The notes under the pieces were generated by a model, which saw only the letters and a program-made list of their open reading frames with translations, did not search any database and had not been told where the DNA came from. A stretch of DNA of 64,000 nucleotides from Planctomycetota bacterium (GTDB taxonomy: Bacteria; Planctomycetota; UBA1135; UBA2386), in assembly GCA_965228735.1 (NCBI GenBank), contig OZ245838.1:1888001-1952000 (forward strand), written 5' to 3'. The translations under genes and the position numbers were made by a program. Numbering within the stretch: position 1 is the first letter of the stretch; each line of letters begins with the position of its first letter. This document shows positions 1-34,282 of the stretch, piece after piece.

Positions 1-655
1 ACTGGCCGCCGCCGTCCTTGGTGGTGACCGAGTAGTCGGCCTGCAGGGTCTTCTGACCCTGGAACTGCATGTCCAGCCCGGCCTTGCTGCCCTCGGGGTA
101 GATCAGGTGGACGGAGCTCGGGCCCCAGCCGATCACCCACATCGAGCGCCACTGCGGCGAACCGCTCGCGGGGCCGACGATGATGTTCGAGCCGTTGGGC
201 GCGTTCTTGTCGTCGAACCGCGGCAGCAGCCCGGTGAACTGCGCGTCGTCGGTGTCCTCGTTGCCGCGGAAGATCGTGCCGGCGATCTCGATCCCGAACG
301 CGTGCATCTTGTCCGCGTTCTGGACCAGCATGAACTGCGCCGGATCCTTGGCCTTGTCGACGAGCTTCTTGTCGGCCTGGAAGTAGTCCGTGAGCTCGCC
401 GCAACCGTCACGCACCTGCGTGGTGCTGCCGGTCGACGGCTGCACGCCGCCGTAGAGCTTGCGCCACGTCGGCTGCGAGTAGCCGGTCCGAAGGTTCGTC
501 AGGTTGGTCGAACCATCGTTCGCCTCGAGCATCACCGCCTCTTCGAGGACGTCGTTCTCCTCGGCGATGATCTCCATGACCCGACCGATCTTGCCGTCGG
601 GTCCCTCCAGTGCCTTGAGGTCCGAAAGGGTCGGCCTCGTGTTGGAAAGTGCCAT
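1..655 (-). CDS. Major capsid protein (Bbp17-like), 3' end outside window
   Basis: Not in ORF track. Manual translation from ATG at 655 (GGAGGGG RBS): MALSNTRPTLSDL...EANDGSTNLTNLRTGYSQPTWRKLYGGVQPS...FTGLLPRF...WGPSSVHLIYPEGSKAGL, typical of BPP-1-like capsids; directly follows the scaffold. Confidence 0.88.
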   Translation of the reverse strand, partial: MALSNTRPTLSDLKALEGPDGKIGRVMEIIAEENDVLEEAVMLEANDGSTNLTNLRTGYSQPTWRKLYGGVQPSTGSTTQVRDGCGELTDYFQADKKLVDKAKDPAQFMLVQNADKMHAFGIEIAGTIFRGNEDTDDAQFTGLLPRFDDKNAPNGSNIIVGPASGSPQWRSMWVIGWGPSSVHLIYPEGSKAGLDMQFQGQKTLQADYSVTTKDGGGQ

Positions 656-678: not shown

Positions 679-1371
679 CTATTTCTTGCCTACGTCACCA
701 AACAGGATGTCGGCGGTGCGGCGTTCCCCGCCCGCTCCGCCGGCGCCGACGACCAACGAGTCGTCTTCGCTGACCAGGTCTCCGGCCTTCGCGAGTGCCT
801 TCAGCACCTGCAGGTTGCTGCCGAGTCCCGTGGTCTTGAGCAGACCGGACAGCTCTCCGCTCGGATCGAGCGCCTTCAGGGCGCGGCCGACCTTGCCGAG
901 GTTGCTCTTGAGGTTGTCGCCTCCGAACTCCGGGTCGTTCCGGGTCTCGTTGAGCATCTCGTCGTGCTGCTTGCGCATCGCCTCGAGCTGCTGCTCGGCG
1001 ACCTGCTGCTGCACCACGGGCGCCATGGTGTCGATCACCATCTGCGCGTTGTCCTGCGTCAGGTTGAGCTTGCGCGCGACCTGCTCGGAGAAGTGCTCGA
1101 GCACCTGACCGCCGAGCTCGCTGCCGTCGGGGGCAGTCAGCTCGTAGGTCTCGGGTGCACCGGGCGCCGCCTCTCCGTCGCCGTCTTGCGTCTGCTCACC
1201 GGCCTCGGGCGGCTGTTCGCCGCCTTCCTGGCCGCCTTCGGCAGGTTGCTGTCCCTGCTCGCCTGACTGCTCTCCCGATCCCTCCGAGGAATCGAGCAGC
1301 GTGGCCAGGCCGTTGTCCGTGCCACCGTCGCTGTTTGGTGTTTCGGTCGGGTTTGGCTGCGGCTCACTCAT
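679..1371 (-). CDS. Capsid scaffolding protein (Bbp18-like)
   Basis: Acidic disordered N-terminus, APETYEL, DPEFGGDNL..N, TGLGSN, C-terminal TADILFG; immediately upstream of the capsid gene. Confidence 0.82.
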   Translation of the reverse strand: MSEPQPNPTETPNSDGGTDNGLATLLDSSEGSGEQSGEQGQQPAEGGQEGGEQPPEAGEQTQDGDGEAAPGAPETYELTAPDGSELGGQVLEHFSEQVARKLNLTQDNAQMVIDTMAPVVQQQVAEQQLEAMRKQHDEMLNETRNDPEFGGDNLKSNLGKVGRALKALDPSGELSGLLKTTGLGSNLQVLKALAKAGDLVSEDDSLVVGAGGAGGERRTADILFGDVGKK

Positions 1372-4751: not shown

Positions 4752-6455
4752 TCAGACCCCCGCAGCCGAGAGAGCTCCCAGCGCTTCGTTCGCCGCGTTC
4801 GCATCGCCACCCGTCGGCACACCGGCCAGGTCCCGCATCGTCTTCGCCTGCACCGCACCAGCCTCGATCTGCGCCTGCGCCGCCTGCGCGTCGGCGCGCG
4901 CCTTGCGCACCACCGCGACCTGCTGCCCGCCGTGCACATGCTCGGGATCGACCCCCATCCGATCCGCCACGCGATCGGCGATCGAATCGGCGTTCACCTT
5001 GTCGGTGACGTCCCTGCGGAAGTCCGCCAGGATCCCGACCGTGCCGAGCCACCGCTCGGTCGAGCGCGTCTCGTAGGCCTGCTGCGCCTGCGCCAGCAGC
5101 GAAACGAACTCGATGTTCAGCTCGTGCCCGACTAGGTCCGGCGGCGGCGGCGGGATCTCGCCAGCCTCGGCCAACCGCAGGAACGCGTTGTCGACGAGCG
5201 GCTCGAGCAGCTCGTTGTGCGTCCGCTGCAGCATCGGGCCGAGCATCAGCATCTTCTCTTCCTGCAGCTGGCTGACCTCGAACTTCGTCCGCTCCTGGTT
5301 CGTGGTGTTGGCCAGCAGCAGGAACATGTCGACGTTCATCGCGCGGTTGATCCGCTGCTGCACGTCGAGAAGGTCCGCCCGCAGTTCCCCGAACGGGATG
5401 TTCGGCTCGAACAGCGGCTTGATGCCGCCGTTGGGGTGCGGCGTGTCGACCGGGTTCCAGCCGCCCGGCAGCGAGTCGATCTCGTGACCGTCGACGCGGG
5501 TCGGCCCCTGCAGCGACGGATCGAGGTAGAGGTCGATCGCGTTGCCCTTCTGCAGCTGCTCGTGATTGAGCTGCCGCATGTCGCCGAGCGCCTGCATGCC
5601 GGGCCCGTAGCCGTAGATGTCGCCGCCGTAGGTCCACCACCTCGGTACCACCGCGGGGAACTCGCGGAAGCCGCCGACCTTCAGCAGCCCGTCAGTCCCG
5701 TCGTTGCCGTTGAGCTCGAAGTAGACCGACTCGAACGCCATGTCCTCGCGGTGCGGGCTGGCCTTGTCGCGCTTCATGCGCGGTTCGATGGCGTGGCAGA
5801 CCGGGACCCACTCGTCGTAGTGCTGCCGGTTCCACTTCTCCTTCGTCCCCTGCGAGCAGTTCTCGAGCCCGAACTGCTCGACCAGCGCGTGCACCGGCAT
5901 CTCGAACTCGCGGTAGATCGTGTTGATCAGGCCGTCCCAAGACGCCCCGACCGAATACTCGCCGATCGTCAGAGGGTGCAGGTGGATCAGGTTCTTCGGG
6001 TGCGGAACGATGATCCCGGCCCCGGTCCCGAACGCGCCCTCCTCCTGGAAGATGTTGTGCAGGCCGTGGTAGACGTTGCTCTTCTGGAACAGCCGCAGGA
6101 TCCGCTCGGTGACCGCGTACAGCCACTTCTTGACCGGCCGGAACTTGTTCAGGCTCGGGTCCGCGGTCGCCATGCGGATCCACGGCATCGTGCTCGGGGC
6201 CGCGCCTGCCATGAGGCCTGCGGTCTGCACCTGCAGCGACCAGTGCGGCGTGCTGTCGTAGATCGCGTGATCGCGGCGGTGGCCCTTGTTGCGGTCCTGA
6301 ATGAAGAACCGGCCCGCGCGCGGCAGCAGAACCTCGCTGATGTCCTTCCAGTGCGGATCCCAGGTGCTGCGCTCGTTCTTGAGCACGTCCAGGCGCTTCC
6401 GCTTCTGCTTCCGGTCCGGCAGGTTGCGCGCGCGGTATCCCTCGACGTCCACCAT
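4752..6455 (-). CDS. Portal / head-to-tail connector (Bbp21, T7 gp8-like)
   Basis: 567 aa; IYDST, GAFGTG, PRW...YGYGPG..ALGD, LGPML.R...ELL.PL, IEFVSLLAQAQ. Confidence 0.93.
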   Translation of the reverse strand: MVDVEGYRARNLPDRKQKRKRLDVLKNERSTWDPHWKDISEVLLPRAGRFFIQDRNKGHRRDHAIYDSTPHWSLQVQTAGLMAGAAPSTMPWIRMATADPSLNKFRPVKKWLYAVTERILRLFQKSNVYHGLHNIFQEEGAFGTGAGIIVPHPKNLIHLHPLTIGEYSVGASWDGLINTIYREFEMPVHALVEQFGLENCSQGTKEKWNRQHYDEWVPVCHAIEPRMKRDKASPHREDMAFESVYFELNGNDGTDGLLKVGGFREFPAVVPRWWTYGGDIYGYGPGMQALGDMRQLNHEQLQKGNAIDLYLDPSLQGPTRVDGHEIDSLPGGWNPVDTPHPNGGIKPLFEPNIPFGELRADLLDVQQRINRAMNVDMFLLLANTTNQERTKFEVSQLQEEKMLMLGPMLQRTHNELLEPLVDNAFLRLAEAGEIPPPPPDLVGHELNIEFVSLLAQAQQAYETRSTERWLGTVGILADFRRDVTDKVNADSIADRVADRMGVDPEHVHGGQQVAVVRKARADAQAAQAQIEAGAVQAKTMRDLAGVPTGGDANAANEALGALSAAGV

Positions 6456-17989: not shown

Positions 17990-19306
17990 CTACCCGGCGC
18001 TGCGCTCGCGCACCGACCCGCTCTGAGGATCACCCGTGCGCTGAGAATATGGTCGACTATTTGGTCGGCTCTCGGAGTCCGGGATCAGCCCCTCCACCGT
18101 CGCGATCGCGGCCGGGATCTCATTGATGAACTGCCGTAGCTTGGCGGCGTCCGTGCGCCGGTAGTGCTTGCGGGTGACCCCACCGGGGGTGTGGCGGAGG
18201 ATCGCGGCGACGATCCCGTCCGGCACCGCCTCGTCGAGCGCGTTCGCAAGCGACGTGCGCATGGCGTGCAGGTCGAGGCGCCGCCCGGCGTGATCGACAA
18301 CCGGCAGCTTGGCCCACTTCGCATCGTCCCGGATCCTCGCGGCGAGGTGGCGCGGCAGCGTCGGGTAGCCGCTCGGGTCGGGGTAGCCGACGACCAGCTC
18401 GTCATCGTGGACCGGCTTGCCGGCCTGGACACCGCGGTGTCGACGAACGTCGCGCAGCAGGTCGCGCAGTCCATCGTGCAGCGGCACCGACTGCTGCGTG
18501 CCGGTCTTAGTGATCTCCGCCGGCAGGTCGATCGTCTCGTCGGAGATCATCCCCCACCGCAGGTTCGCCAGCTCGTTGTTGCGCAGCCCGGCCAGGAACG
18601 CGATGACGACCGTGAGCGCCCGGCGCCGCGCGATCTCCATGTGCTTCTCGATGTTCGCCGGCCGGGCCCGGCTCTGCAGCGTGCGCTGGATGGCCGCCTT
18701 CGCGAGCTGGTTGACGCCCTCGGGAGTCAGGGCCTGCCGGTGCTGGCGCTGCTCCGAGGGCGTCCTGCGCAACGCTACGACCGGGTTCTTGAGGGCGCGG
18801 TCACCCTCTTCGAGCCACCGGCCAAACTGCTTCAGGAGGGACGCGTATTCGTTCCTCGTCTTGACCGTGGCGCCGCCGTCCAGAAGGCCGTTCAGGAAGC
18901 GCGTCGCCCGGTCGAGAGTCACGTCCGCAATCGACGTCGCGCGCATCCGCTTGAACGCCTTCTTCAATCGCGCGGTGACGAGCTTGACGTGCTTGTCACC
19001 CTGCTTGCGCACGCGCCGGCGAAGACCGGACCGCACGTGCTCGATGAAGTCGTCGAGGTGCTCGTCGATCGGGCGCTCGCGTTGCTCTGCGTGTGGGTCA
19101 AAGAGACCGGCAGCTTTCTTGTCGTAGTCCGCCTTCGCCGCACGCAGAAACGTGTTGGCGGCAGTCTTCGTCTTGAACCCCTCGCGCTTGGACCAGGGGT
19201 TCCGTTTGTGCCGGTTCTCGTAGCGCCGGAACTTGACCGTGAACGGCCCACGCCCCTTTGCCGGGAAGATCGAGCCGTTCCAGTCTTTGCCCGAGGAGAG
19301 CGTCAT
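17990..19306 (-). CDS. int: Tyrosine integrase
   Basis: AGLRNNEL, TKTG, LHAMRTS, ILRH, KHY catalytic set; adjacent to att. Confidence 0.92.
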   Translation of the reverse strand: MTLSSGKDWNGSIFPAKGRGPFTVKFRRYENRHKRNPWSKREGFKTKTAANTFLRAAKADYDKKAAGLFDPHAEQRERPIDEHLDDFIEHVRSGLRRRVRKQGDKHVKLVTARLKKAFKRMRATSIADVTLDRATRFLNGLLDGGATVKTRNEYASLLKQFGRWLEEGDRALKNPVVALRRTPSEQRQHRQALTPEGVNQLAKAAIQRTLQSRARPANIEKHMEIARRRALTVVIAFLAGLRNNELANLRWGMISDETIDLPAEITKTGTQQSVPLHDGLRDLLRDVRRHRGVQAGKPVHDDELVVGYPDPSGYPTLPRHLAARIRDDAKWAKLPVVDHAGRRLDLHAMRTSLANALDEAVPDGIVAAILRHTPGGVTRKHYRRTDAAKLRQFINEIPAAIATVEGLIPDSESRPNSRPYSQRTGDPQSGSVRERSAG

Positions 19307-21703: not shown

Positions 21704-22204
21704 CTACGGCTTCTTCGCGGCGTGAGCTTCCATGTCCTGGCGAAGTTGCTCCCGGACTGCGACGCTGCGCTTGTTGAGGAACAGCAGTTTCCCCAAGCGG
21801 TCCGCGATCAACTTCTTCTTGACCGGGAACATGAGCTTGCCGGATTGCTCTTCGATCGTCCCCGACCGCAGCTCTCCCATCAGCTCCGTCACCTGATGCC
21901 GGATCATCATCGCCGCTTGGAATGCGTCGTTGCCTTCGTTGGCTAGCAATGCGCGCTGTCCAGCCCGCTCTGCAAGCTCCGTCATCCCGATCACAGTGAG
22001 GCCGCGATCTTCATGGGTCTCATAGATCTCAGCAGCTGGCTTCCCGGCGGCCAAGTCTGCCTCGATAGCGAGGACCAACTCTTGCGCTGCTTCGGCTGCG
22101 ACGATCGCTGCATCAATAGGGTTCTCCGGCATCCACCCTGATTGCCCTGGCCGGGCGACACAGGCCGCAAGAAGGATCGGGAACGTCAAGAGCAACCAAC
22201 GCAT
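21704..22204 (-). CDS. Hypothetical lipoprotein
   Basis: MRWLLLTFPILLAAC lipobox; lower GC. Confidence 0.55.
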   Translation of the reverse strand: MRWLLLTFPILLAACVARPGQSGWMPENPIDAAIVAAEAAQELVLAIEADLAAGKPAAEIYETHEDRGLTVIGMTELAERAGQRALLANEGNDAFQAAMMIRHQVTELMGELRSGTIEEQSGKLMFPVKKKLIADRLGKLLFLNKRSVAVREQLRQDMEAHAAKKP

Positions 22205-22385
22205 GAGCCCAAGAAGATCGGCGCCACCGTTGCCCCGCAATCGAAACCGCCCATTTCAAACGAGGCCCGATACGGTCGCCGTCGAAGAGAAGACCAGATG
22301 TCATGAAGGGCGTGCTGATCGTGATCGGCGTGATCTTTCTGTTCAACCTCGCCCGCGGCTGCAGCAGGTAGCCCCCCTTAGACCC

Positions 22386-23048
22386 TCACTGACTCGCTCT
22401 TCGCTCGTCTCGCTCGGCACGAAGCTGGATGAACTGCCGGATCGAGTCCGCCAACTTGAACCACTCACCTCGGACGCGGTGCTCGGCGAACGCGTCGTGC
22501 AAGAGGCTCTCTGTCTCCCGAGTGCCTCGGAACGAATAGAGCACCTCAAGGGACTCGCTCGGGTTGTCGGTCATCATCTGCCCGAGACGGGCCTTCACGC
22601 TGCGCGCGAGACCGATCTTCACGAGGTCGGTCGAAGTGTCCGCAATGAAGTAGATGAAGCCCGGTTTGTGCAGCCGGGATCCCTGGCCGCGTTGCCGACG
22701 GAGACGATCCCGGCGCTCCATCAGTTCCGTTTCGCGTTCGAGCAGGTCAAGCCCGCGCTTCCCGTCCAGGATCGGGGCGAGGAGGTTGATCAGCTCGCGG
22801 AGGCGCATGTGGTGCGCCGGCGGCCGGCTGCCGTTCTCGGTGCCCAAGATGGCCTGCTCCTCGCGCATCAGGACGCCGTCGGCATGTGCCTCCTCGGGCG
22901 TGTCGCGGGATGAACCGACCACTGTCTTCCCCGCGATGACCGCCCAGCCGCGATACTTGTAGCCATCCTTCCGGCGAAGGCGCTGAACGTAGGGCGGCAG
23001 CTTGGCGCCGTCTCCCAGGTCCGAGCTGCCGTTCTCGGAGTCGCTCAT
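22386..23048 (-). CDS. GIY-YIG (T5orf172/MUG113-like) protein with AP2-like N-terminal domain
   Basis: GFIYFI...VKIG...R...E..LH..F...R.RGEWF; N-terminal YRGWAVI.GK......DTPEEAH. Confidence 0.75.
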   Translation of the reverse strand: MSDSENGSSDLGDGAKLPPYVQRLRRKDGYKYRGWAVIAGKTVVGSSRDTPEEAHADGVLMREEQAILGTENGSRPPAHHMRLRELINLLAPILDGKRGLDLLERETELMERRDRLRRQRGQGSRLHKPGFIYFIADTSTDLVKIGLARSVKARLGQMMTDNPSESLEVLYSFRGTRETESLLHDAFAEHRVRGEWFKLADSIRQFIQLRAERDERRASQ

Positions 23049-23336
23049 GCGGCACAGCCTACGCGAAGCGCGCGCAGCGCCGACCCGAGCAGTTCTATGC
23101 ACGCAGCCCGACTCAGATCACCGCGGAATTCCATCGCCGCGCGGCATAGGTTCCGCGCCGGCAGCGATCCCACATCGCGGAAAAAAGTTCGCGGCCGCGT
23201 TTCGTGAGAGCGGTCGAGCAATGGGTTTTGAAGAGCCGACTTACGTGATACCACTGTCTACCCAAGTGTCTACTGTGCGGTAGTTTAGAGGACTGCGTCC
23301 GTCGACCCTCGGCTCCAACGGCATAGATGGTAGGCC

Positions 23337-23621
23337 ATGCCACTATCGACTCCGAACGAGCCATCACCGGCCGTCCAAGAGCTACGCCTCCGCCTCGAAG
23401 CCGGACAGCTTGAACCCGTCGGCGCTGTCATCGAGCGCGTCCTCGGCGAAGCCATCTCGGGCGTCACCCTGGCCCGCTGGTGCGAGGTCGGCCGAGCCGG
23501 CATCCGAATCCCCACCGTGCGCGGCGCGCGCCTGAAGCGCCTGACGACGGAGAGCGCCTTCCGCCACTGGCTCTCGGTGACGAGCGACCTCGTCGAGGAG
23601 GAGGGCTGCGACGATGCGTGA
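23337..23621 (+). CDS. DUF1580-like winged-HTH protein
   Basis: TLARW...G..G.RIPT......TTE.A..W. Confidence 0.65.
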   Translation: MPLSTPNEPSPAVQELRLRLEAGQLEPVGAVIERVLGEAISGVTLARWCEVGRAGIRIPTVRGARLKRLTTESAFRHWLSVTSDLVEEEGCDDA

Positions 23622-23829
23622 GCACGAGGAGCTGCTCCACGTCGGTGACCTGGAGCCCGTCGAAGTCGTCGTCGAGCGCGTGATGGGTCACGTGGATCCG
23701 TTCCACCTTCGGCGCTGGATCGAGCACGGACGCGCCGGACGCATCGTGTTGCCGACCGTCGTCGAGGGTGGAGAGAGGATGACGACCGAGGCGGCCCTGC
23801 GCTCGTGGCGCGATGCAACGTCGGCCTGA
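23614..23829 (+). CDS. DUF1580-like protein, tandem paralog
   Basis: LRRW...GRAG...LPT..GG..TTEAALRSW. Confidence 0.6.
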   Translation: MREHEELLHVGDLEPVEVVVERVMGHVDPFHLRRWIEHGRAGRIVLPTVVEGGERMTTEAALRSWRDATSA

Positions 23830-23849
23830 AGGCGAAGAGGGAGACGGAG

Positions 23850-26015
23850 ATGACCGAGATCGACTACACGCAGACGGCAGAGGGGATCGAGATCCCCGAC
23901 CGCCTGAAGCAGCAGCACCGGTGGTGCCGGTGGAGTCTGCAGCGCAACGAGCAAGGGCGGATGACCAAGAAGCCCGACCGCTCGACCTCCGACGTGGAGG
24001 CGCTGTCGCCCTTCGAGCCGGGCGCGATGTCAGACACCCGAGGAATCGGGTTCGTTTTCACCGACGGTGTCGAGGACGACGAGGGCTGCACGCTCATCGC
24101 GATCGACATCGACGCGTGCCGCGTGCCGACGCGCAACGCGAACGACGAGTCAGGCGAGGACGCCGGGCAACTGACCGATTGGGGTCGTGAGGTCATCGAG
24201 ATGTGCGGCCACAGCTATACCGAGGTGTCGCCGTCGGGCACAGGGCTGCGCGTCTTCGTGTTCGTGCGCGCCCTCAACCGCGAGATCACCACGAAGATGC
24301 GCGCGCCCGGCGCAGCCGCGCCCGGTGTCGACAAGAACCCCGAGGTTCAGCTTTTCGGCGTTCACGGCGCGGCTCAATACGTGACCGTCACCGGGCAGCG
24401 CCTGCTCGCAACGTCGCCCGACATCCTCACGCTCGACAACCTCGACGAGCTGATCGCGCAGTATCGCCTCGACCAGGACTACAAGGAGCGCGGCGACGGG
24501 TCACTGCCCGAGGGCAATGGCGAGCGGCGAACGCTGGAGCAGATCGCGGAGCGGGTGCGGGACGCCTCCTGGAAGTGCGAGCACCTGCTGAAGGGCGATT
24601 GGGATCACGAGGATCTCGACTACGCCAGCCCGAGCGAAGGCTACGCCGCGATCGTTGGGTTCGTGCTGAAGGCCGCGAACGGGCACGGCGACCTCGCCCT
24701 CGACTTCCTGATGGACTTGCCCGTGTGGGCTGCGGGCACCGTGCGCGAGAGCGCCGACCCCGGCAAGTATGGGCGGCGAGCATGGGTCCACGGCGAGGTG
24801 TGCCGGCTCCACCAGGGCAATGCAGACCCTGACCCGGCGCGCGTGTTTGAGCCGCTCGGTGAGCTGCCGCCCGAGGAGCGTCCCCCGTCGCACAAGCGGG
24901 CGCGCATAGTCACGTTCGAGGAGTTTGACCGGAGCGTTCAACCCGAGCGATTCCTGATCGACGGTCTGCTCCCGCGCACGGGACTCGCGCAGTTCTTCGG
25001 CGACCCCGGCAGCGGCAAGACACCGTTTGCGATGAACGTCGCGCTCGCGGTCGCGCTCGGCGAGGCGCGGTTCTTCAACCGCGACGTCGACCACCACGGC
25101 AAGGTGCTCTACATGGTCGGCGAGGACGCCAACGGGCTGGGACACCGGTTGCGCGCGGAGCTGAATGCCCGAGGGCTAACCCGAACAGATCTCCAAGGCC
25201 GCCTGTTCCTCACGACTCAGCCCGGGCAGCTCTGCGACGAGGAGGACGCCGCGCGGTGGCGCGACGAGATCCACGCTTTCGGCGAGTTCGCGATGGTCGT
25301 GATCGACACGCAGTCGAGGAACTTCGGCGCCGGCAACGAGAACGACACGCAGGACATGACGCGCTTCGTGAACAACCTCGCGCGGCTCGCCGAGCAACTC
25401 CAGCTCCTGGTCGTCCTGGTTCACCACACGGGCCACAAGTCGAAGGAGCGCGCCCGCGGCAGCTCGGTGATGTTCGGCGCTCTCGACGCGTCCTACGAGG
25501 TCACGAAGGAGGAGATCGGCGACATCAAGGCGGTCGTCGCGAAGTCCACCAAGGCGAAGAATTGGGCTAACCCTTCGCCGCTGCGCGGGACGCTCGTGCC
25601 GGTCACGCTCGACATCGACGGCAAGGGGCGCCCAATCACCGCGATCACATTGAGCCAGAAGGCTCCAGAGGATCAGCCGCTCGGCGACCTCGTCGCGGCC
25701 GAGTTGGAGGACGACGCGGACCTGCGCGCCCTGCTGGCTTTCTTCGTCGGCAGCGAAGGGGAGTGGGTTTCTCGGGCGAAGGCGCGCTCGGTCACCCGAC
25801 TCAGCGATCACAAAGTGAAGGCCAAGACGAGGCGCCTCGTGGAAGTTGGGCTCCTGGAGATCATCGCCGAGAGCGCGACGCGGGGCCGTCAATACCGACT
25901 GCCGCAGGCTCCCAATTCCGAGGGTCAGAGGGGCTCTGAAGCTGGCGATTTCGGGCCGCCAGCTCAGTTGGAGCTGGCGATTTCACCAGCTAGCGCCAGC
26001 TCGGAGGGCCAGTGA
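23850..26015 (+). CDS. Primase-polymerase (NrS-1-like) fused to RepA/AAA_25 helicase
   Basis: IP..LK...W..W, GIGFVF, IDID, YTEVSPSGTGL; Walker A GDPGSGKT, VVIDT, VHHTG, RGSS. Confidence 0.88.
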   Translation: MTEIDYTQTAEGIEIPDRLKQQHRWCRWSLQRNEQGRMTKKPDRSTSDVEALSPFEPGAMSDTRGIGFVFTDGVEDDEGCTLIAIDIDACRVPTRNANDESGEDAGQLTDWGREVIEMCGHSYTEVSPSGTGLRVFVFVRALNREITTKMRAPGAAAPGVDKNPEVQLFGVHGAAQYVTVTGQRLLATSPDILTLDNLDELIAQYRLDQDYKERGDGSLPEGNGERRTLEQIAERVRDASWKCEHLLKGDWDHEDLDYASPSEGYAAIVGFVLKAANGHGDLALDFLMDLPVWAAGTVRESADPGKYGRRAWVHGEVCRLHQGNADPDPARVFEPLGELPPEERPPSHKRARIVTFEEFDRSVQPERFLIDGLLPRTGLAQFFGDPGSGKTPFAMNVALAVALGEARFFNRDVDHHGKVLYMVGEDANGLGHRLRAELNARGLTRTDLQGRLFLTTQPGQLCDEEDAARWRDEIHAFGEFAMVVIDTQSRNFGAGNENDTQDMTRFVNNLARLAEQLQLLVVLVHHTGHKSKERARGSSVMFGALDASYEVTKEEIGDIKAVVAKSTKAKNWANPSPLRGTLVPVTLDIDGKGRPITAITLSQKAPEDQPLGDLVAAELEDDADLRALLAFFVGSEGEWVSRAKARSVTRLSDHKVKAKTRRLVEVGLLEIIAESATRGRQYRLPQAPNSEGQRGSEAGDFGPPAQLELAISPASASSEGQ

Positions 26016-26138
26016 TGCAAGTCGCGGGAAACACGTACTTTAAGCTGGCGACACACAACCGCCAGCTAACCGCCAGCCATAGCTGGCGGGCTGGTGTGCC
26101 CCTTATAGAGGGGCACCAGCTCCGCCAACCAGCTAGCG
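25939..26138. repeat. CCAGCT iteron cluster, putative satellite origin
   Basis: About a dozen CCAGCT/AGCTGG hexamers in both orientations around CCCC-TTATAGA-GGGG at the primase 3' end. Confidence 0.55.
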
Positions 26139-26634
26139 ACCTCGGACAACCCCACCCCTCCGGTGGCGAATCGCTGCAAAGCGAGCACGCGAAGAGGGCC
26201 ACTCGATCGCGATGCAGCGCGACGCGAGCGGATCGCCGCGAGCGATCCCCGCGCATCCGGTGTCGCCACTCTGGCGCCCGACGCATTAACCCGCAGGGCG
26301 CGCGCCCGGCAGCCCGAGCAACTTGGTCATGGGCTCCGGCCGCTGGCGCGCGGCCCTGCACTTCCTCTTTGGCGAGGCGCAGCCCGGACGGGGTGCTCCG
26401 TTTCCATCCCGCACGCGATCGGCTGGTCCCCGATCCGGTTGCCGGGCTGCGCCTCGCCTTCTTCTTCCGCGCTACGCCAGCGCGTGCTGCGCGATCTCGC
26501 GCCGAGGCACCCAGGAGAGGTTGCGACCAGCAGAGCCGCGCACAGCGACGCTCACGAATTCACAGCACCTATGTCTCGGCACGGCGCCGGTCGACCGCCC
26601 TCCGCGTGACAAAACTCAAGTTACCCAAAGCCCA

Positions 26635-27060
26635 ATGAACTCCGAACCAGTTCGCTTCGATCCTCTCGACTACCCCGTCGGGCACCACCTCGATCCGCAC
26701 ATCACCGGCCGGCCCCGTCCGCGTCCGGGTGAGGTCGAGTTCGATCTCGACACGCGTCGGTGCCCGCGGTGTCGGCCCGATCTCTTCCCGGGCGACGTCG
26801 CGCTCGCCGCGCCGGTCTGCTGCGACGGCCCTGCGATCATGCGGTTCGACCTTCGTGCGGCCCGCGCCTACCGCATCTGGCGGGGCTGGCCGACGGAGGA
26901 GGATGTCCTCGTGCTGGCGTTCGTCGTTGGCGACGAGCCCTATCCGAGCCGCCGCCGCGGCGCGCGGGAACCCATGGATGCGCAAGTCATCTGCGCGCTC
27001 GTCGCCGGCGACCCGGTGCCGACGGGCGCCAACATCACCGACTACCCGGCGCGCGCATAG
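26635..27060 (+). CDS. Hypothetical protein (CxxC, CC)
   Basis: ATG 26635 after an AT-richer stretch; GC-rich third positions. Confidence 0.55.
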   Translation: MNSEPVRFDPLDYPVGHHLDPHITGRPRPRPGEVEFDLDTRRCPRCRPDLFPGDVALAAPVCCDGPAIMRFDLRAARAYRIWRGWPTEEDVLVLAFVVGDEPYPSRRRGAREPMDAQVICALVAGDPVPTGANITDYPARA

Positions 27061-27099
27061 CCGCGGGCGCCATCAGCCACACAGCAACACGACAGAACT

Positions 27100-27888
27100 A
27101 TGACGACAGCAAATCTACAAGCCCGGCTCCGAGAGCGCGAGGCATCCCAGCGGCGCCAGAAGGCCGATCAGATCGCCCAGGCCCAGCGAACCTACTCCGA
27201 CCTCGTGATCGCCGCCTACCGCGGCGAGGTCACCAGCGAGGCCGACGTCGAGCAGCTCGAAGCAGCGATGGCCGTGCTCGATCTGGCGCCCCACAACTTC
27301 GACGAAGACGTCGCTGCCCTCGCGGTGCTGAAGCAGACCCGCGACAACGTCTCGGTCGCCCAGGCCGGCGAAGCCGTCGAAGCCGCCCGCGGAGCGGAGA
27401 CCGACGGCAGAAGGCGCGCGAAGCAGATGCGCGAAGAAGCCGACCAACTCGAACGGGCGCTCGCCGCAGACGTCGGAACCGCCAAGGCCGGGGTCCGGGA
27501 GACGCGCGCGAAGCTCGCGTATGCCGATCGCCTCGTAGCCACCCTCAGCGAGCACGGCGTCGTCGTCCCGGCCGATGCGCAACCGGTGACGACGGCGACC
27601 GAACGTGTGCCGCACCGCGTCATCGAGGTCGCCCAGATCGACAACTGCCTGCACGAGCCGGGCGCGGTCGTCTTGTGGCCCGCGGGCGAGCCGCACGCCT
27701 GCCTCCAACCCATCGAGCCGGGTCGCGAGGGCGACCCGTGGGTGCCTCCTCCCGCGCCGCCGTTGCCGCCCACGAGCAGCTCGGTGCTGGCGGAAGCACG
27801 CCGCGACGTCGAGGCCGCCCTCGTGCGCGGTGAACCGGTCCTGCCGAATGTCTTTGGCGGCTTGCCGAAGTCCGAGGAGGAGAAGTAG
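27100..27888 (+). CDS. Hypothetical coiled-coil protein
   Basis: 262 aa, helical Ala/Glu/Arg-rich, 2 nt before the scaffold-like gene. Confidence 0.7.
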   Translation: MTTANLQARLREREASQRRQKADQIAQAQRTYSDLVIAAYRGEVTSEADVEQLEAAMAVLDLAPHNFDEDVAALAVLKQTRDNVSVAQAGEAVEAARGAETDGRRRAKQMREEADQLERALAADVGTAKAGVRETRAKLAYADRLVATLSEHGVVVPADAQPVTTATERVPHRVIEVAQIDNCLHEPGAVVLWPAGEPHACLQPIEPGREGDPWVPPPAPPLPPTSSSVLAEARRDVEAALVRGEPVLPNVFGGLPKSEEEK

Positions 27889-27890
27889 AG

Positions 27891-28514
27891 ATGACTGACC
27901 AAGAACTCACGCTCGCGCAGCGCATGTTCGGTCGTCCTGAGGGTGCCCAGGACGCTGCACCCGACGATGCCCTCGTGCCCGACACCGCGAAGGACGACGC
28001 GCCAGAGGAGCGCAGCGTGGCATCAAGGATGTTCGCGAAGCAGGAGCCAGTCGATTCCAACGACACCGAGGACGCCGAGGGCACCGACGACCCCGGTGAT
28101 GAAACCCCGGGCGACGTTGACGATGAGCAGTCGGGGTTCCGCCGTCGCTATCAACTGCAGGTCGAGGGCACCGAAGTCGACCCGCGGATGAACGACACGA
28201 TCCTGGACGCAGCCCACGAGGCCGGCATGAGCCAGGACGCCACGGAGAAGTTCGTCGAGAACATCGCGCCGCGACTGATCGCCGAGCATCAGGCGCAGGC
28301 TCGAGCGCGATTCAACGAGTGGACAGAAGCGACGAAGTCGGACGCCGAGATCGGCGGCGCTCGCCTCGACGAATCCATCGGTGTCGCCAAGCGCACCCTC
28401 GACGCCGTCAAAGTCTCGCCCGAGTTCCGCCAGTTCATCTTCGACTCGGGCCTCGGGAATCACCCGGACTTCGTTCGCCTCTTGGTCCGGGCCGGCAAGC
28501 GCATGGGGGTTTGA
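27891..28514 (+). CDS. Satellite scaffold-like protein, homolog of 679-1371
   Basis: SDAEIGGARL.ES...A.R.L...DSGLGNHP..VR....GK aligns with helper NDPEFGGDNL.SN...RAL...TGLGSN...AG. Confidence 0.8.
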   Translation: MTDQELTLAQRMFGRPEGAQDAAPDDALVPDTAKDDAPEERSVASRMFAKQEPVDSNDTEDAEGTDDPGDETPGDVDDEQSGFRRRYQLQVEGTEVDPRMNDTILDAAHEAGMSQDATEKFVENIAPRLIAEHQAQARARFNEWTEATKSDAEIGGARLDESIGVAKRTLDAVKVSPEFRQFIFDSGLGNHPDFVRLLVRAGKRMGV

Positions 28515-28516
28515 TC

Positions 28517-28891
28517 ATGCCCAAGAAGAATTCCAAGGGATCCGATCCGCCGCAGCAGATCGCGCTCTCGGGAAACCGCGCAAAGGACGGCAAGTTCCTT
28601 CCGGGTCATAGCCTCCCAGGCCCCGGACGGCTGCGCGGCTACGACCCTGTGAAGGCGGCGGTCGCGGCGTGCGAGCGCAACGGCACGACGCTCGAACACG
28701 AGCTTGGCGAAGTCTTGTTCACGCTCATCTCGCTGGCCAAGAAGGGCGACGTCGCCGCTGCACGCGAAGTCCTGAGCCGCACAACCGCTGACATGAAGTG
28801 GACCGCATCGAATGACGGGAAGTTCACGGTGACGGTCGTCAACACCGGCGTACCAACCGGGAACGACCAGATCGAGGAACTGCTCTCATGA
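28517..28891 (+). CDS. Putative terminase small subunit
   Basis: RAKDGKFLPGHS.PGPGR, AKKGDVAAA; ATGA-coupled to TerL. Confidence 0.65.
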   Translation: MPKKNSKGSDPPQQIALSGNRAKDGKFLPGHSLPGPGRLRGYDPVKAAVAACERNGTTLEHELGEVLFTLISLAKKGDVAAAREVLSRTTADMKWTASNDGKFTVTVVNTGVPTGNDQIEELLS

Positions 28892-30285
28892 AACCACCAC
28901 CGCAGATCGATCTCGGCTACCTACCACGCGACTGGCAGCGTGAGTGCCACCAGCTCAAGCGCAAGAACCGGTTCGCGGTGCTGGCGCTCCACCGCCGCGC
29001 CGGCAAGACGCTCTGGGCGTTGATGGAACTCGTCCATGCGGCGCTGCAGTTCGACAAGGAGCTGGGCCTGTTCTTCTTCGTCGCCCCGACCCTGAAGCAG
29101 GCGAAGGCGATCGCGTGGCGCGAGCTGAAGCGCATCCTCGAACCACTCCGAATCGCCGGCCTCGTTGAGATCCGGGAGACGGAGTTGACAGTCGAGTTCA
29201 AGCACAACGGCGCGCGCATCTCGCTGTTCGGCGCCGACAACCCGGACGCCATGCGTGGCGTTCGCCTCGATGGCGTCGTCATCGACGAGGTCGGCCACGT
29301 TCCACCGGACACCTGGTTCTCGATCCTCCAGCCGACGTTGTCCGACCGGCTCGGGTGGGCAGTGTTCATCGGGACGCCGAATGGGATCAACCTCTTCAGC
29401 GAGTTGTTCTTCAAGGCGACGGACGAGGACGAGTGGCACGCTGGTCGCTACACGGTGAGCGAGACACAGGCCCTCGACGCCAAGGAGGTCGAACGCCTCC
29501 GGCGCGACATGCCAGACACCGCGTTCGCCCGCGAGTATCTCTGCGACTTCTCGGCCGGCGGTGAAGACCAACTGATCTCGCTGTCCGACGTCGAATCCGC
29601 CGCGCAGCGTGAGTGGACAGAGCGCGAGGTCGCCGGTGCGCCGCGCATCCTCGGTGTCGACGTCGCCCGATTCGGTTCGGACCGCAGCGTCGTCATCAAG
29701 CGCCAGGGCCTGCACACCTGGAAGCCGATCGTCTACAAGGACGTCGACCTGATGACGCTCGCGAGCGCGGTGGCGAGCATCATCCAGCAGTGGCGCCCGG
29801 ACGCCGTGTTCGTCGACTCAGGCGGCGTTGGTGCCGGACTGGTGGACCGACTGCGGCAGCTCCACTTCGACGTGCATGAGGTCAACTCGTCGAGCAAGGC
29901 CGGCAAGCCGGACGCGTTCACGAACCGACGTGCAGAGTGCTGGTCTGCGATGGCCGACTGGGTCCGCGGCGGCGGGTCGATCCCGAACGACACCGCGTTG
30001 AAGCAGGAGCTGGCAACGCCCGTCTACTCGTTCGACGCGAGCGGCCGGAAGAAGCTCGAATCGAAGGACGACATCAAGAAGCGCCTCGGTGGCGGTAGCC
30101 CCGACACCGCGGATGCACTCGCGCTCACGTTCGCGAGCCCAGTGACACCAGCCACCGAGGTCGACCGCGTCCTGGAACAGTTCGACGTCCACCGTCCGCG
30201 TGCGAAGACGTATGGCGACCACGACCCCTTCGCGGTCCTCGACGAGGTCGAGAAGAGCCACGATCCGTTCGCCTGGAGGCGCTGA
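28888..30285 (+). CDS. terL: Terminase large subunit (satellite)
   Basis: HRRAGKT, VVIDEVG, FIGTPNG, F.REY.CDF, LGVDVARFGSD, SPDTADALALTFA. Confidence 0.93.
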   Translation: MKPPPQIDLGYLPRDWQRECHQLKRKNRFAVLALHRRAGKTLWALMELVHAALQFDKELGLFFFVAPTLKQAKAIAWRELKRILEPLRIAGLVEIRETELTVEFKHNGARISLFGADNPDAMRGVRLDGVVIDEVGHVPPDTWFSILQPTLSDRLGWAVFIGTPNGINLFSELFFKATDEDEWHAGRYTVSETQALDAKEVERLRRDMPDTAFAREYLCDFSAGGEDQLISLSDVESAAQREWTEREVAGAPRILGVDVARFGSDRSVVIKRQGLHTWKPIVYKDVDLMTLASAVASIIQQWRPDAVFVDSGGVGAGLVDRLRQLHFDVHEVNSSSKAGKPDAFTNRRAECWSAMADWVRGGGSIPNDTALKQELATPVYSFDASGRKKLESKDDIKKRLGGGSPDTADALALTFASPVTPATEVDRVLEQFDVHRPRAKTYGDHDPFAVLDEVEKSHDPFAWRR

Positions 30286-30484
30286 TCGCTTTCATGCTGT
30301 GCTCCCTCACCAACGGAGAGCGCGGTTCCCGGTTGGATCCTCCGAAAGAAAAACTGCGGGTGGGAACGCTTCCTAGCGCATAGACGCAGACGGCGTTGCA
30401 ACGAATCGTGCAACGCAGTTCACCCTGCGCATTTTTGAATCATGAAGCGAACATTGGTGTGGGCACAGACGTCCAGAGCGAGCA

Positions 30485-31045
30485 ATGCCAACTCCAACGA
30501 AAGTCCCCGAACGATACTGGACCACCTGCTGGGCGACCCTCAGGTTGCGGAGCATCAAGTGGTGCACCAAGTTCGGATTCCCCTACCCCTGTGGCCTGAT
30601 TCGATTCACGATCCGATTGCCATACCCTTGCCGAAAAACACGAATGGTCGATGGCTGGTGCTATCACTGCCAACCTCTTGAGACACGCGGCTCGGGTTTG
30701 TTCCGTTGCCGGCAAGAATGCTGCGAGAACGGAGTCCTCTACGAGCGTTCGATCTGGTGTGCCGGAGGGCGCCTCCGGAAACTCGTTGCAGACCTTTGCG
30801 TCAAGGACAAGCTCTCCTCCGCAGGTTCCTGTGGCTCACCTAACAGCGGTCCCACCACGTTCGAAGAAGCACTGGAGAAGGCGCCGATGCCGGTTGAATC
30901 TCGAGCGACCCGCGGACTTGGTGACATCGTCGAAAAGATCATCCGATTCATGACGCTCGGATTGGTCGAGCCGTGCGCTGCCTGCAAGACACGGCAGGCT
31001 CTACTGAACAGGCTGTGGCCCTTCAGACGCATGAGGCCAGCCTGA
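30485..31045 (+). CDS. Cys-rich hypothetical protein
   Basis: C-terminal GLGDIV...C..C..RQ..LN motif; start uncertain; low GC. Confidence 0.45.
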   Translation: MPTPTKVPERYWTTCWATLRLRSIKWCTKFGFPYPCGLIRFTIRLPYPCRKTRMVDGWCYHCQPLETRGSGLFRCRQECCENGVLYERSIWCAGGRLRKLVADLCVKDKLSSAGSCGSPNSGPTTFEEALEKAPMPVESRATRGLGDIVEKIIRFMTLGLVEPCAACKTRQALLNRLWPFRRMRPA

Positions 31046-31304
31046 AAAGAGCGGGGCGTTCGCCGATGCGATGCAGGAACAGCGGCGGGCTGCGCTACGC
31101 GCGCCCGCCGACCAGGCGAAAGCAAGCATCCCGCCTAGCGTCACGATGCGGCGACCGCGCGCCGGATCTACGAGACGTCTACCCACGTCGACCGCGCGGA
31201 GGCACGGGCCGCGTGGCTCGAAGCGGCCGAGGACTTGAGGTGGTGCGGTGCGGCGATCGCGGAGTGCAGCACCACATGTTCACTCCCGGTGCTACGATCG
31301 TCTA

Positions 31305-31979
31305 ATGGGCACCAACAAGGAGCAGCGAGGGACCGACTATGACCTGGACAAAAGGTTCGAGAACTACTGCTTCTTGAGACTTTGCATGATCGATCTCAGC
31401 GCCGCGAAGCGCCGCGTTGCGCAGTTAGAACCGCTGAAAGACGACAGCGTTCGCATCCCCCTGCTTGAGAACGTTGTGGTCGTCTACGCCCGCCCGTTCT
31501 CGGGGAACAAGGGGAGAGTGCAAGGCAAGCACCGCCTGCCGAAGTCGCACATACCGAGCGATTCTCTGGATCTGCATCGAGAGCTAATCGCACTTCGAAA
31601 CGAGCTGTTCGCCCACAGCGATGCGACGTTCCACGACCCGGTGGTCATGCGAAACATCGGGCCGCCGGAAGCACCATTGCATCCAGTGCGGTTTCGGGTC
31701 GCCGACTTCCAGAGTCTGTCGACGCGGATTCCTGACCTTCGAACGCTGTTCGAAGGTGTCGAGGCTATTGTACGAAGGGCAGTAGACGCGGCCCATCGAG
31801 ACCCTTGGTTCGCCGATGCGGCGAAAGCGGGGAAGCTCGAACACACGATTCACATGGGCTCGTTCAACTTTGCTGGAAAGGGCCCGGGCACCTACACCAC
31901 TCCCTATCTTGTAGACATGGGGGCGACGACTGAGGTCGCGCGAGATTCGTCGGCAGAAGATGATGAGGCGAGCGAGTAG
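31305..31979 (+). CDS. HEPN-like hypothetical protein
   Basis: LH..L..LRNELFAH (Rx5H) in a helical protein. Confidence 0.6.
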   Translation: MGTNKEQRGTDYDLDKRFENYCFLRLCMIDLSAAKRRVAQLEPLKDDSVRIPLLENVVVVYARPFSGNKGRVQGKHRLPKSHIPSDSLDLHRELIALRNELFAHSDATFHDPVVMRNIGPPEAPLHPVRFRVADFQSLSTRIPDLRTLFEGVEAIVRRAVDAAHRDPWFADAAKAGKLEHTIHMGSFNFAGKGPGTYTTPYLVDMGATTEVARDSSAEDDEASE

Positions 31980-31987
31980 CGACGCGC

Positions 31988-33256
31988 TTATTCCGAGGCA
32001 AAGAGGTTGGGCAGGTCTGCGGCCTGCTCGCGTGCTTCGTCAGACAGCTCTAGTAGCGCGACTACGTCGTAGGCCCTGCCCCCGGCCGCCGTTGAGTTCG
32101 TCGCCACCACGATGCCCCTCTTGGTGTCGGAGTTGACGACGGCAGAAACGAGAACCGCGCCGGCAAACTTGATTCGCTCGCCGCGAGGTTCGTCGCTGTA
32201 CACGAAGACATACGCACAGTCGTTCGTGATCCACCTGAAGTACTGCACCGACCCGTCCTCCGCGTCGCGAGCAGCCCGGTGCATCAGCTTGCCCATTTCA
32301 ATTCGACGGGACCGAGTCAGGTCAGACAGGAGAACAATTGCCGCGGCCACATCAGCTTTGGTTCCGGCTTCGTTCCACTCTTGCTCAGGGTCTCGCTCGT
32401 GCATTCGAGCGATCACGTCGTCGACCAACAGCCCATACTGCCGATCCGGAGAGTCTCGCAACTCGCCAGAGAGGAGTGAGTGGGCGTGGCCCATCGTCTT
32501 GCGCAGGATCTCGCCGTCGATATCGGGCCGGACGCGAACGAGCCAATCCGGGAGTTCGACCAACACCTGACTGACGAACGAGAACTCGTCATGCACGCGG
32601 GCGACGACGCCGGACAACACTAGGTCCTGGCGCAACCCCAGATACCAGAGCAGGTCACCCGCGGTGTCCATCCGCGTTGCAAGCTCGATGAAGTCTCGCA
32701 GCGACACCACGTGGACCGGGAACCCAACATCGGCCAGCTCCGGCTCCATCTCGCTCGCTACGAACGGTGTATCGTCCGGCATATCGATCACGATCAACCC
32801 GAACCGAACGGGGTAGCAGTCCGGATCGAAAGGCATTGGGCCGAGAGTGTCGCTCACGACCTCGGGAACAAGGCGCTCGCGCAGCATGCGCTCGCCATAG
32901 GTGACCTGCTTCAGTGCCTTCTTGAGGTTCTTCCGAGCCCAGCCCGTCCCTGCACGCTCGCCAGTCTGCGCCTTGCATTGCACGAAGAGCGCGGTGTCGT
33001 CGAAGAGCACGAGTCCATCTGCCAGCTCGCCCTTGCCCCCTTTTCCAGGCTGCTCGCGAAACACGAAGTCGCGAAAGAACGCTGCCTCCAGAAGCCAGTT
33101 CGTCAGCTTTTCTTCATACTTGCCGTCGGCACGCTCGGGCGGTGCCGACATGTTGAAGCGGCGCCACGGCTCCTCTTCGATGACCATTGGCCCATCGTGA
33201 CCCTCTTGCCAACCAGTGTCGATACCGGGGGGCATTTCGGTAGCCGTGCGACCCAA
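31988..33256 (-). CDS. NERD/PD-(D/E)xK-like nuclease domain protein
   Basis: GELADGLVLFDDTALFVQCKA...ALKQ; start uncertain. Confidence 0.6.
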   Translation of the reverse strand: MGRTATEMPPGIDTGWQEGHDGPMVIEEEPWRRFNMSAPPERADGKYEEKLTNWLLEAAFFRDFVFREQPGKGGKGELADGLVLFDDTALFVQCKAQTGERAGTGWARKNLKKALKQVTYGERMLRERLVPEVVSDTLGPMPFDPDCYPVRFGLIVIDMPDDTPFVASEMEPELADVGFPVHVVSLRDFIELATRMDTAGDLLWYLGLRQDLVLSGVVARVHDEFSFVSQVLVELPDWLVRVRPDIDGEILRKTMGHAHSLLSGELRDSPDRQYGLLVDDVIARMHERDPEQEWNEAGTKADVAAAIVLLSDLTRSRRIEMGKLMHRAARDAEDGSVQYFRWITNDCAYVFVYSDEPRGERIKFAGAVLVSAVVNSDTKRGIVVATNSTAAGGRAYDVVALLELSDEAREQAADLPNLFASE

Positions 33257-33268
33257 CGGTCTACGGCA

Positions 33269-33724
33269 TCATTCAAAGAGCAGGGGGCGCATCCGCGTGT
33301 AGAGACGCGTCAGCTCGTAGAGGCCGTCCCCGGATGCCCTTCTAAAGTCGGCGACGCCACCCTGGTCGTGGTCGGAATCGAACACGCTGTGCCAACCGGA
33401 TCGCTCGTCGACGATCACGGGTCCGGGCGCGTCTGAGAACTGGTCGGCCGTTATGTCGACGACCAAGTCGCCCCGCTGTAGCCACGAGTGGCACCACCAG
33501 TCTCCGCCGTAGGGCCTCTGACTGTTGACATACTCGAAACCGGAGATGCCGCTGTCCACGAGATACGCCCCAAGCAGCATCGTGGCATCGCCACACGCTC
33601 CGTGGGGGAAGTCGCGCATCTGAACCGGTAGCTGCGCGGGCGGCACCTCGGGAACCGTCTCGTCGAGCACGCGCCGCATCCGATGCGCGAGGTCCTCGAT
33701 CTGCTGTCGCTCAGGATCAGTCAC
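33269..33724 (-). CDS. Papain/transglutaminase-like Cys-His-Asp protein
   Basis: FPHGAC...HSWL...VVDITADQF; GTG start at 33724. Confidence 0.65.
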   Translation of the reverse strand: MTDPERQQIEDLAHRMRRVLDETVPEVPPAQLPVQMRDFPHGACGDATMLLGAYLVDSGISGFEYVNSQRPYGGDWWCHSWLQRGDLVVDITADQFSDAPGPVIVDERSGWHSVFDSDHDQGGVADFRRASGDGLYELTRLYTRMRPLLFE

Positions 33725-33725
33725 T

Positions 33726-33932
33726 TCACGGCCTGCGCGGATCGTAGAGCCGGGCAGCCTGCTCGTCGGCCGCCTTGACCCCGTCGGCGCCGCACTTCCG
33801 CATCCACGCCTCGTAGGCGGAGACGGCGTCGTGCATGAGCGGGTTCTCCTCGTCGGGCACCCGGTCAACGCCGATGCGGCGGGTCAGCTCGTCGAACGCC
33901 TCGATGTGCTCGGGACCGGTGTCGTTGGTCAT
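33726..33932 (-). CDS. Small hypothetical protein
   Basis: 68 aa, abuts the downstream gene. Confidence 0.45.
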   Translation of the reverse strand: MTNDTGPEHIEAFDELTRRIGVDRVPDEENPLMHDAVSAYEAWMRKCGADGVKAADEQAARLYDPRRP

Positions 33933-34079
33933 GCCCAAGGATTGTCGCGACGGCGCGATCGATCGCCACTCGGGGCCGCGATCTGGTCGGGGCGTCGATT
34001 TGGTCGACTATCTGGTCGGCTTTCGATCACCCGGTGTCGTAACGTCAAGCGCGCACGCGGCGTGCGGCAAGTCTGACCA

Positions 34080-34109
34080 GGGTTCGATTCCCGCCGCCTC
34101 CACCATTCT
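34080..34109 (+). repeat. att core copy 2 (attR of satellite)
   Basis: Exact repeat of 17898-17927. Confidence 0.9.
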
Positions 34110-34138
34110 TCAAAACGACCTGATTGGTCCGTTCCAGT

Positions 34139-34189
34139 CCGGCCGAGTTCGGAAGTTTCTTTTAAAGAAGCGCTTCCTTGCTCGGCCGG
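34139..34189. terminator. Long imperfect hairpin downstream of attR
   Basis: CCGGCCGAG..GGAAG.TTCTTT / AAAGAA..CTTCC..CTCGGCCGG. Confidence 0.45.
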
Positions 34190-34282
34190 CTCACTTTCAG
34201 AGTCCGACGAATTCCGAGACGAACCGCTGGCGGTTGCAGACTCAGATATCCGTTCGAGTATCTGCGGTCGATCCGCCATCTG

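Follow-up and report, generated by a model that had tools for sequence, protein, structure and literature searches.

The window that we analysed is the whole 64,000-nucleotide stretch of DNA (G000:C1:1888001-1952000); positions are counted from its first letter unless they are marked G000. A tmRNA ends at G000 1861755, and the 26-bp core of its 3' end recurs only at G000 1905898 and 1922080. The recurrence of this core at two sites indicates two tandem elements, a 44,168-bp prophage and a 16,182-bp element, whose main features in the window are as follows.

1..655 (-), prophage major capsid gene, 5' part, directly behind the scaffold gene; PF20911 GP7, phrog_212
679..1371 (-), prophage scaffold, 230 aa, with one tip near its C-terminal end (10.2 bits, 697-723)
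4752..6455 (-), prophage portal / head-tail connector; PF12236
17898..17927 (+), att copy (tmRNA 3' end, tmRNA core repeat) at the prophage/element boundary
17990..19306 (-), tyrosine integrase of the element; PF00589
23805..26015 (+), primase-helicase; AAA_25, phrog_906
27100..27888 (+), 262-aa ORF directly upstream of the scaffold homolog; long helices H3-40 and H64-151, no family match
27891..28514 (+), scaffold homolog, 207 aa, lacking a C-terminal tip; phrog_458 (Bbp18 / epsilon15 gp6 family)
27906..27932 (+), N-terminal tip-like motif 1 of the homolog, aa 6-14; 7.7 bits with a tail-trained matrix
28011..28037 (+), N-terminal tip-like motif 2, aa 41-49; 12.4 bits with the same matrix
28140..28511 (+), conserved all-helical core of the homolog, aa 84-207; pLDDT 85-98 from residue 91
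28517..28891 (+), putative TerS, 124 aa, by position before TerL; DUF5681 E 0.097, below the cut-off
28888..30285 (+), TerL, 465 aa; Terminase_6N, phrog_2
34080..34109 (+), distal att copy of the element, lying 16,182 bp after the copy at 17898

Besides these genes, the element encodes an HTH protein, a second recombinase, RadC and a GIY-YIG-like protein; an HTH_17/phrog_66 ORF and two weak DUF1580 ORFs scored below the Pfam cut-off. Scans of 18 element ORFs against Pfam and PHROGs returned no capsid, portal or tail family, very divergent or short ORFs aside. The sequence-only reading, which placed 27891-28514 in a satellite of about 16 kb, is supported both by the satellite-like context, where an integrase, TerL and a primase-helicase are encoded and recognisable genes for capsid, portal or tail are absent, and by the size, 16,182 bp between the att cores. 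The scaffold homolog precedes the putative TerS and TerL in a tight operon, away from any capsid gene. This order, scaffold followed by terminases, is new; in phages the order is TerL, portal, scaffold, capsid.

In four runs from four studies (X1, X4, X6, X8), positions 14500-34240 of the window had no listed base differences and X1 had one single-base gap; in X4 the whole stretch was on one contig. No att joint indicating excision was found in the contigs of the four runs, a kind of data in which rare forms are dropped. The depth of the element contig was about twice that of the prophage contig (8.63 vs 4.7 in X1, 9.35 vs 4.88 in X6), and X6 contained a second contig of 12.5 kb (depth 4.82) ending at the same att. 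Either of two neighbours may adjoin the element on its left, or it may replicate; the tmRNA of another organism is also possible.

Other genes of the element and its border were recorded as well. Beside the integrase, 19771-21209 (-) encodes a RadC/JAB protein and another tyrosine recombinase, of 326 aa. The product of 22386-23102 (-) is of the MUG113/T5orf172 type and weakly matched PADLOC PDC-S57 (E 4.6e-6). The lower-GC stretch at the far end, 31248-33868, holds three cargo ORFs (243, 422 and 199 aa) of no clear family; these and the MUG113/T5orf172 protein are possible defence cargo. Just beyond the right att, at 34353-35590 (+), lies a transposase that we take to be IS256-like; it reads as two ORFs, and its left end has about 10 further copies in the genome.

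The ATG of the ORF at 27891-28514 is preceded by a ribosome-binding-like run, GAGGAGGAG, and its junctions are tight, with 2 nt from the upstream stop to the ATG and 2 nt from its own stop to the next ATG. Its GC3 is 0.81, and that of the neighbouring genes is 0.79-0.88. The product matched phrog_458 with E 3.8e-30 (prophage scaffold, E 4.7e-40), and tblastn with it matched 73 phage records, Bbp18 and epsilon15 gp6 among them. Counted over the whole protein, 14 of the 18 family columns conserved at >=90% are kept, and the conserved helical core that marks phrog_458, DxExGG ... GLGNHP ... R.G, is present. The model combines a confidently predicted helical core with low confidence over the first 80 residues, and the acidic N-terminus is predicted to be disordered.

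The protein is, as had been claimed from the letters, a homolog of the Bbp18-like family that ends directly after the core at RAGKRMGV, the 207-aa ORF leaving a tail of 5 aa. It carries LTLAQRMFG at aa 6-14 and RSVASRMFA at aa 41-49, set in acidic linkers with 9 D/E in aa 16-41 and 14 D/E in aa 51-83. The motif quoted earlier as the end of the prophage scaffold is present there, but the protein terminus itself is RRTADILFGDVGKK, five residues further on. Behind the stop of the element gene we found no tip relic in any frame, and a recent nonsense truncation is therefore ruled out.

Databases label the phrog_458 family 'protease'. In epsilon15, BPP-1, MW202640, MW202722 and the prophage, the phrog_458 gene immediately precedes that for the major capsid protein, a position that the element gene does not share. 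PF05396, the T7 capsid assembly family, was matched at E <=0.05 by 25 of 150 members (best 1.5e-5), and a stray peptidase match was seen in one; the element protein gave E 0.011, below the cut-off. A fold search with the scaffold model reached at best Z 4.0 among 48,161 chains, and the BFVD matches were mainly members of the same family, unnamed or called 'putative protease', with named scaffolds appearing only at E >0.1. No solved structure of a phrog_458 relative was found by sequence search, and the openly readable literature offered no demonstration of phrog_458 as a scaffold or of coat binding by its tip. The gene position, the helical model and the weak PF05396 matches favour a scaffold over a 'protease'.

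To describe the tip we used a matrix of nine columns trained solely on the C-terminal tails of 148 relatives, which are the best 150 of the 4,945 phrog_458 clusters matched in the profile search at E <=0.001, minus P0077 and P0205. A C-terminal tip was scored in 144 of the 148, a circular count since these tails are the training set. The median tail of the relatives was 32 aa, whereas the 5-aa tail of the element protein had no matrix match. The prophage scaffold had one match in its tail (10.2 bits) and none at its N-terminus with the same matrix. Motif 1 of the element protein is weak, its 7.7 bits lying near the 5% quantile of natural tips. When the element N-terminus was shuffled, two matches of >=7.7 bits, a threshold taken post hoc from the weaker motif, arose in 2 of 20,000 sequences. 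Among 4,041 codon-filtered ORFs of the host genome, 57 had one match in the first 86 residues, and only the element scaffold gene had two. The natural tails SLAQRMYPN and TIAQRMYPN, from loci that also hold a portal gene, nearly match motif 1; the Phe-Gly common to motif 1 and the neighbouring prophage tip involves residues found at those columns in 20 (Phe) and 23 (Gly) of the 144 tips. The comparison of sequences thus supports the view that the N-terminal motifs of the element protein are copies of the C-terminal tip of the family.

We then asked how ordinary such an arrangement is. An N-terminal match of >=8 bits was seen in 8 of the 148 relatives (10 of 7,400 shuffled N-termini); one of these, P0181, is a misaligned fragment whose match is its own tail, which leaves 7, and all 7 also retain the C-terminal tip. 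Among another 122 proteins, 116 of them new and 6 already collected, the matrix found a tail tip in 119, one N-terminal copy in 2 and two copies in none; the three proteins without a tail match comprise two with long tails and variant tips and the tail-less P0337. A third set, chosen through the TerL of the element, contained 80 viral loci with 32 scaffolds that passed the core model, many of them near-identical, and every tail in it was at least 28 aa. Since 7/148 relatives and 6/32 TerL-chosen scaffolds carry one extra N-terminal tip and none carries two (0/148, 0/32), a single extra tip is, as far as these sequences tell, an uncommon normal feature, and doubling with loss of the tail is rare. 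The proposal of a rearranged scaffold had been made to depend on the N-terminal arrangement not being common in ordinary phages; the single copy does occur there, and the doubled form stays distinctive. The motif had also been described as moved and doubled. The lost tail and the two N-terminal copies agree with this, but a single N-terminal copy is already present in some ordinary phage scaffolds, so that duplication together with loss of the tail is a better description than a move. L018:517-1191, L024, L057 and L081 are ordinary epsilon15-like phages whose scaffolds have one tip per end, and these scaffolds provide a natural control for tip valency.

The top match among the 4,945, P0077, has the same design: its N-terminus carries two motifs, of 19.0 and 14.3 bits, and its tail is 5 aa long. 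It is only 38% identical to the element protein over the core, and both motifs have thus been retained over a long divergence, although their spacing (35 aa in the element protein, 45 aa in P0077) and the lengths of the linkers differ. Another variant of the tip is seen in P0205, which has one scored N-terminal motif and an 11-aa tail, and in P0337, which has two variant N-terminal motifs identified by eye and a 14-aa tail; this variant stands at the C-terminus in P0295 and P0058, the proteins most closely related to them. P0077, P0205 and P0337 come from contigs of 1,353, 1,079 and 3,834 bp. P0075 and P0076, 135-aa proteins with the last part of the scaffold core only and without a tip, are possible other truncated forms.

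Further tail-less scaffolds with gene context did not turn up in word-based or sampled searches, which fall short of showing absence. A protein search of IMG/VR gave none, and a DNA pattern for the double motif there, covering spacings of 35-45 aa only, gave 12 matches with 0 scaffolds. Metagenome contigs yielded 5 loci, all false, and GTDB contigs 1 locus, which matched the same spurious stretch. In a sample of 401 genomes of the phylum and 339 of the class, the matches examined were of phage type with long C-terminal tails, apart from one that was spurious.

A careful tree was built from 42 cores chosen by hand, over 116 columns; it is unrooted, and its bootstrap had not settled completely. 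In it the element protein pairs with P0077 (99/97), the two being nested in a modestly supported group (82/93) with 6 of the 10 one-extra-copy scaffolds, MW202640 included. P0205 and P0337 fall in a separate supported clade (98/95), and the prophage scaffold lies outside both tail-less groups. A quick tree of 160 rows agrees with the careful one. This split into two supported groups suggests two origins of the tail-less design, but only suggests them, as a single clade of all four tail-less proteins was not rejected by the AU test (p 0.056). Because the core of the element protein groups with one-extra-copy scaffolds, albeit with modest support, a single-step move of the motif is improbable. 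An origin from the scaffold of the adjacent prophage was considered and is unsupported, the two sharing 26% identity over 99 aa and standing apart in the tree.

Among annotated phages, the TerL proteins of MW202640 and MW202722 are the most similar to that of the element (61-62%), and the prophage TerL has 32% identity to it over 210 aa. The donor could have been a phage whose scaffold had a tip at each terminus; this scaffold would have been captured along with the phage TerL, after which the N-terminal tip would have been doubled and the C-terminal tail lost. This succession of capture, N-terminal doubling and tail loss is the likely history as read from the sequences, on a tree that is unrooted.

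The adjacent prophage is epsilon15/BPP-1-like, with an integrase, TerS, TerL, a portal, a phrog_458 gene and a capsid gene. The full capsid gene (339 aa, G000 1887636-1888655) belongs to the epsilon15 gp7/BPP-1 family, and the whole genome contains one phrog_212 match, this capsid, and two phrog_458 matches. The host is probably a planctomycete, as loci from its phylum resemble proteins named Planctomycetaceae. The sequence-only reading had treated the neighbour as the helper. It can stand as a candidate, and only as that, because the element has its own distant TerL (32% over 210 aa) and a scaffold whose derivation from the prophage is unsupported (26% core identity). A complex prediction with the prophage coat protein (25-row alignment) and element residues 1-55 scored 0.00 in two runs without folded controls and counts neither for nor against binding. 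Two other prophage proteins were noted. Between portal and scaffold, 1744-3480 (-) encodes a PKD-like/beta-helix protein of 578 aa that resembles by eye a chromosomal 615-aa protein at 58201-60048 (-). A 1,088-aa protein (G000 1883290-1886556 (-); L002:8294-11557) has a tail-tubular-like domain (phrog_394, residues 886-1087) behind a long region of weak fibre matches.

We propose that the two N-terminal tips of the element protein would bind coat protein made by a helper podovirus. The near-universal tip of phrog_458 would be the coat-binding site, by analogy with phage 80alpha, the scaffold of which binds coat protein through its last 16 residues, and with CpmB, which binds coat via an RIIK motif common to the helper scaffold and competes with it (PMC5644958, available part). 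Two tips on one chain would provide avidity and could bridge neighbouring coat subunits, and the element protein would displace the one-tip scaffold of the helper. Bridging might change the curvature as CpmB does, whose dimer straddles capsomers according to the same part of PMC5644958, and might bias assembly to smaller heads that suit the 16-kb element and would be filled by its own terminase. Coat binding by the element motifs seems to us probable, and redirection of head size, given such binding, somewhat more plausible than its absence; both are judgements, not computed values. Combined, they put the complete reading, in which the rearranged scaffold binds helper coat, displaces the helper scaffold and biases assembly to smaller heads, slightly short of an even chance.

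The size of the element bears on the last step. The ratio of element to prophage length is 16,182/44,168 = 0.366, and the available text of PMC5644958 gives head diameters of 45 nm for SaPI1 and 63 nm for 80alpha, for which (45/63)^3 = 0.364. This match is weak support for small heads, since satellites are commonly about 14 kb (PMC10085698, available part) and SaPIs that package by the headful are transduced just as well in large heads (PMC6893505, likewise). In addition, MW202640 is an ordinary phage with a genome of about 39 kb and a scaffold with one extra N-terminal tip, and from such phages it follows that more tips per chain alone need not shrink heads. The disordered linker, with a spacing of 35 aa in one protein and 45 aa in the other, would also be a poor ruler for curvature.

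These points lend themselves to a reading without resizing, in which the protein would be a coat-binding competitor or decoy that titrates coat protein or marks proheads of normal size for the element terminase, which would pack two to three tandem copies in them. A linker that is variable and disordered is what a decoy would allow, two tips per chain are tolerated by ordinary phages, and with its own TerL and a likely TerS the element could win packaging without changing the shell. Type 1 SaPIs, moreover, suppress phage and transduce normally without size genes, according to the portion of PMC6893505 at hand. We regard this reading as a serious minority possibility: a decoy peptide would not need the whole folded core, which is kept, and the length of the element falls at the 45/63-nm volume ratio.

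The tip might instead bind the portal, the terminase or the scaffold itself, and the doubled motif would then capture the portal vertex or co-polymerise. The C-terminal region of the P22 scaffold contacts portal as well as coat (PMC12005531, available part), no structure of the phrog_458 family was found by sequence, and the element scaffold gene is tightly linked to the terminase genes. The available part of PMC5644958, however, describes the coat-binding site of both the 80alpha scaffold and CpmB as a short amphipathic C-terminal motif, and nearly every member of the family, whose gene stands before that of the capsid, has the tip; this makes a partner other than coat improbable. Even less credible to us is that the element is a decayed podovirus prophage that lost portal, capsid and tail and kept the scaffold gene as a relic. 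The element TerL is 61-62% identical to ordinary podovirus TerL and the scaffold is likewise podovirus-like, the TerL-linked loci with a scaffold all have the ordinary phage layout, and a second such element with gene context was not found in the searches. Decay would hardly account, however, for a new gene order with tight junctions, a ribosome-binding site and no tip relic, nor for two att sites and core ORFs that are all intact, and the same architecture recurs in the 38%-identical P0077. The reading that we tentatively prefer remains the one with coat binding and smaller heads.

The first gene of the packaging operon, the 262-aa ORF, has about 150 residues of predicted long helices and is, on this model, a candidate external scaffold or decoration protein. 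Its single-sequence model had a pTM of 0.32, a weak JetC coiled-coil match was seen, and its nearest Pfam-bearing Atlas cluster was P4 Psu, with a weak score of 0.78. Fold searches gave no Foldseek match at E 0.001 and generic coiled coils only (Z <=6.9), and no relative was found in IMG/VR. P4 Sid/Psu and PLE TcaP (PMC10945586, available part) resemble it as long helical proteins, the ORF being one in the same operon as the scaffold homolog, but it has no significant sequence or fold match to them; these proteins are external scaffolds, whereas the scaffold homolog of the element is of the internal type.

Scaffold control of capsid size is partly understood, and few satellite redirectors are known: CpmB, Rcm, Ccm, Sid and TcaP. 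A testable natural pair occurs in this one genome, namely a coat protein accompanied by a scaffold with one tip, and a homolog that has two tips and no tail; it bears on whether tip valency and position alone alter shell size.

Among known proteins, CpmB is similar in being a satellite-encoded helical protein with the short terminal motif of the helper scaffold, and SaPI1 is similarly a capsid-less integrated element of about one third the size of its helper (PMC5644958, available part). The element protein carries that terminal motif in so far as one matrix scores both of its motifs and the prophage tip. CpmB, as the same source describes it, has 72 aa and one C-terminal RIIK and becomes bivalent by dimerising; the element protein, in contrast, is a full 207-aa scaffold homolog with two motifs per chain, N-terminal to the core. 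Unlike SaPI1, the element would have a podovirus-type helper, has its own TerL and is known here from sequence alone. Rcm of SaPIpT1028 is necessary and sufficient for small capsids and interacts with coat protein; this satellite protein is larger and multi-helical, has motifs in common with the scaffold of its helper and has been proposed to compete with that scaffold. The system is staphylococcal, and permutation or doubling is not described in the available part of the source (PMC12409344). We therefore liken the element protein to CpmB and Rcm by presumed function only and do not class it with them. Its homologous core is shared with Bbp18, epsilon15 gp6 and the phiV10 'protease' (29-33% over about 125 aa), which also have an acidic low-complexity N-terminus; these proteins retain about 30 aa of tail, built as ED-linker-tip, and their genes immediately precede the capsid gene, whereas the element protein has a tail of 5 aa.

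The openly readable literature, supplements aside, described no epsilon15/BPP-1-type satellite or doubled-tip scaffold. That TerL-bearing, shell-less satellites of epsilon15/BPP-1-like podoviruses form an undescribed class with a bivalent resizing scaffold, of at least two origins, is a possibility that we consider rather unlikely. If it were true, such a scaffold would represent a new way of setting capsid size and the first satellite-driven size control in this podovirus group, and the large 'protease'-annotated phrog_458 family would consist of scaffolds with a defined coat-binding tip. With the PICIs and cf-PICIs, as the accessible part of PMC10085698 presents them, the element shares an integrase (here with att sites), putative small HTH regulators, a primase-replicase, a packaging module and a size of about 14-16 kb, and no tail or holin match was seen in it. 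PICIs carry no structural genes beyond TerS and a capsid-morphogenesis gene, and the element has a full TerL; in SatelliteFinder, according to the same part of that paper, TerL is specific to cf-PICIs, which also encode the capsid, portal and head-tail proteins that the element lacks. Having TerL without capsid or portal, the element fits neither the PICI nor the cf-PICI model cleanly (PMC10085698, same part), and it extends satellites to a TerL-bearing, capsid-less layout.
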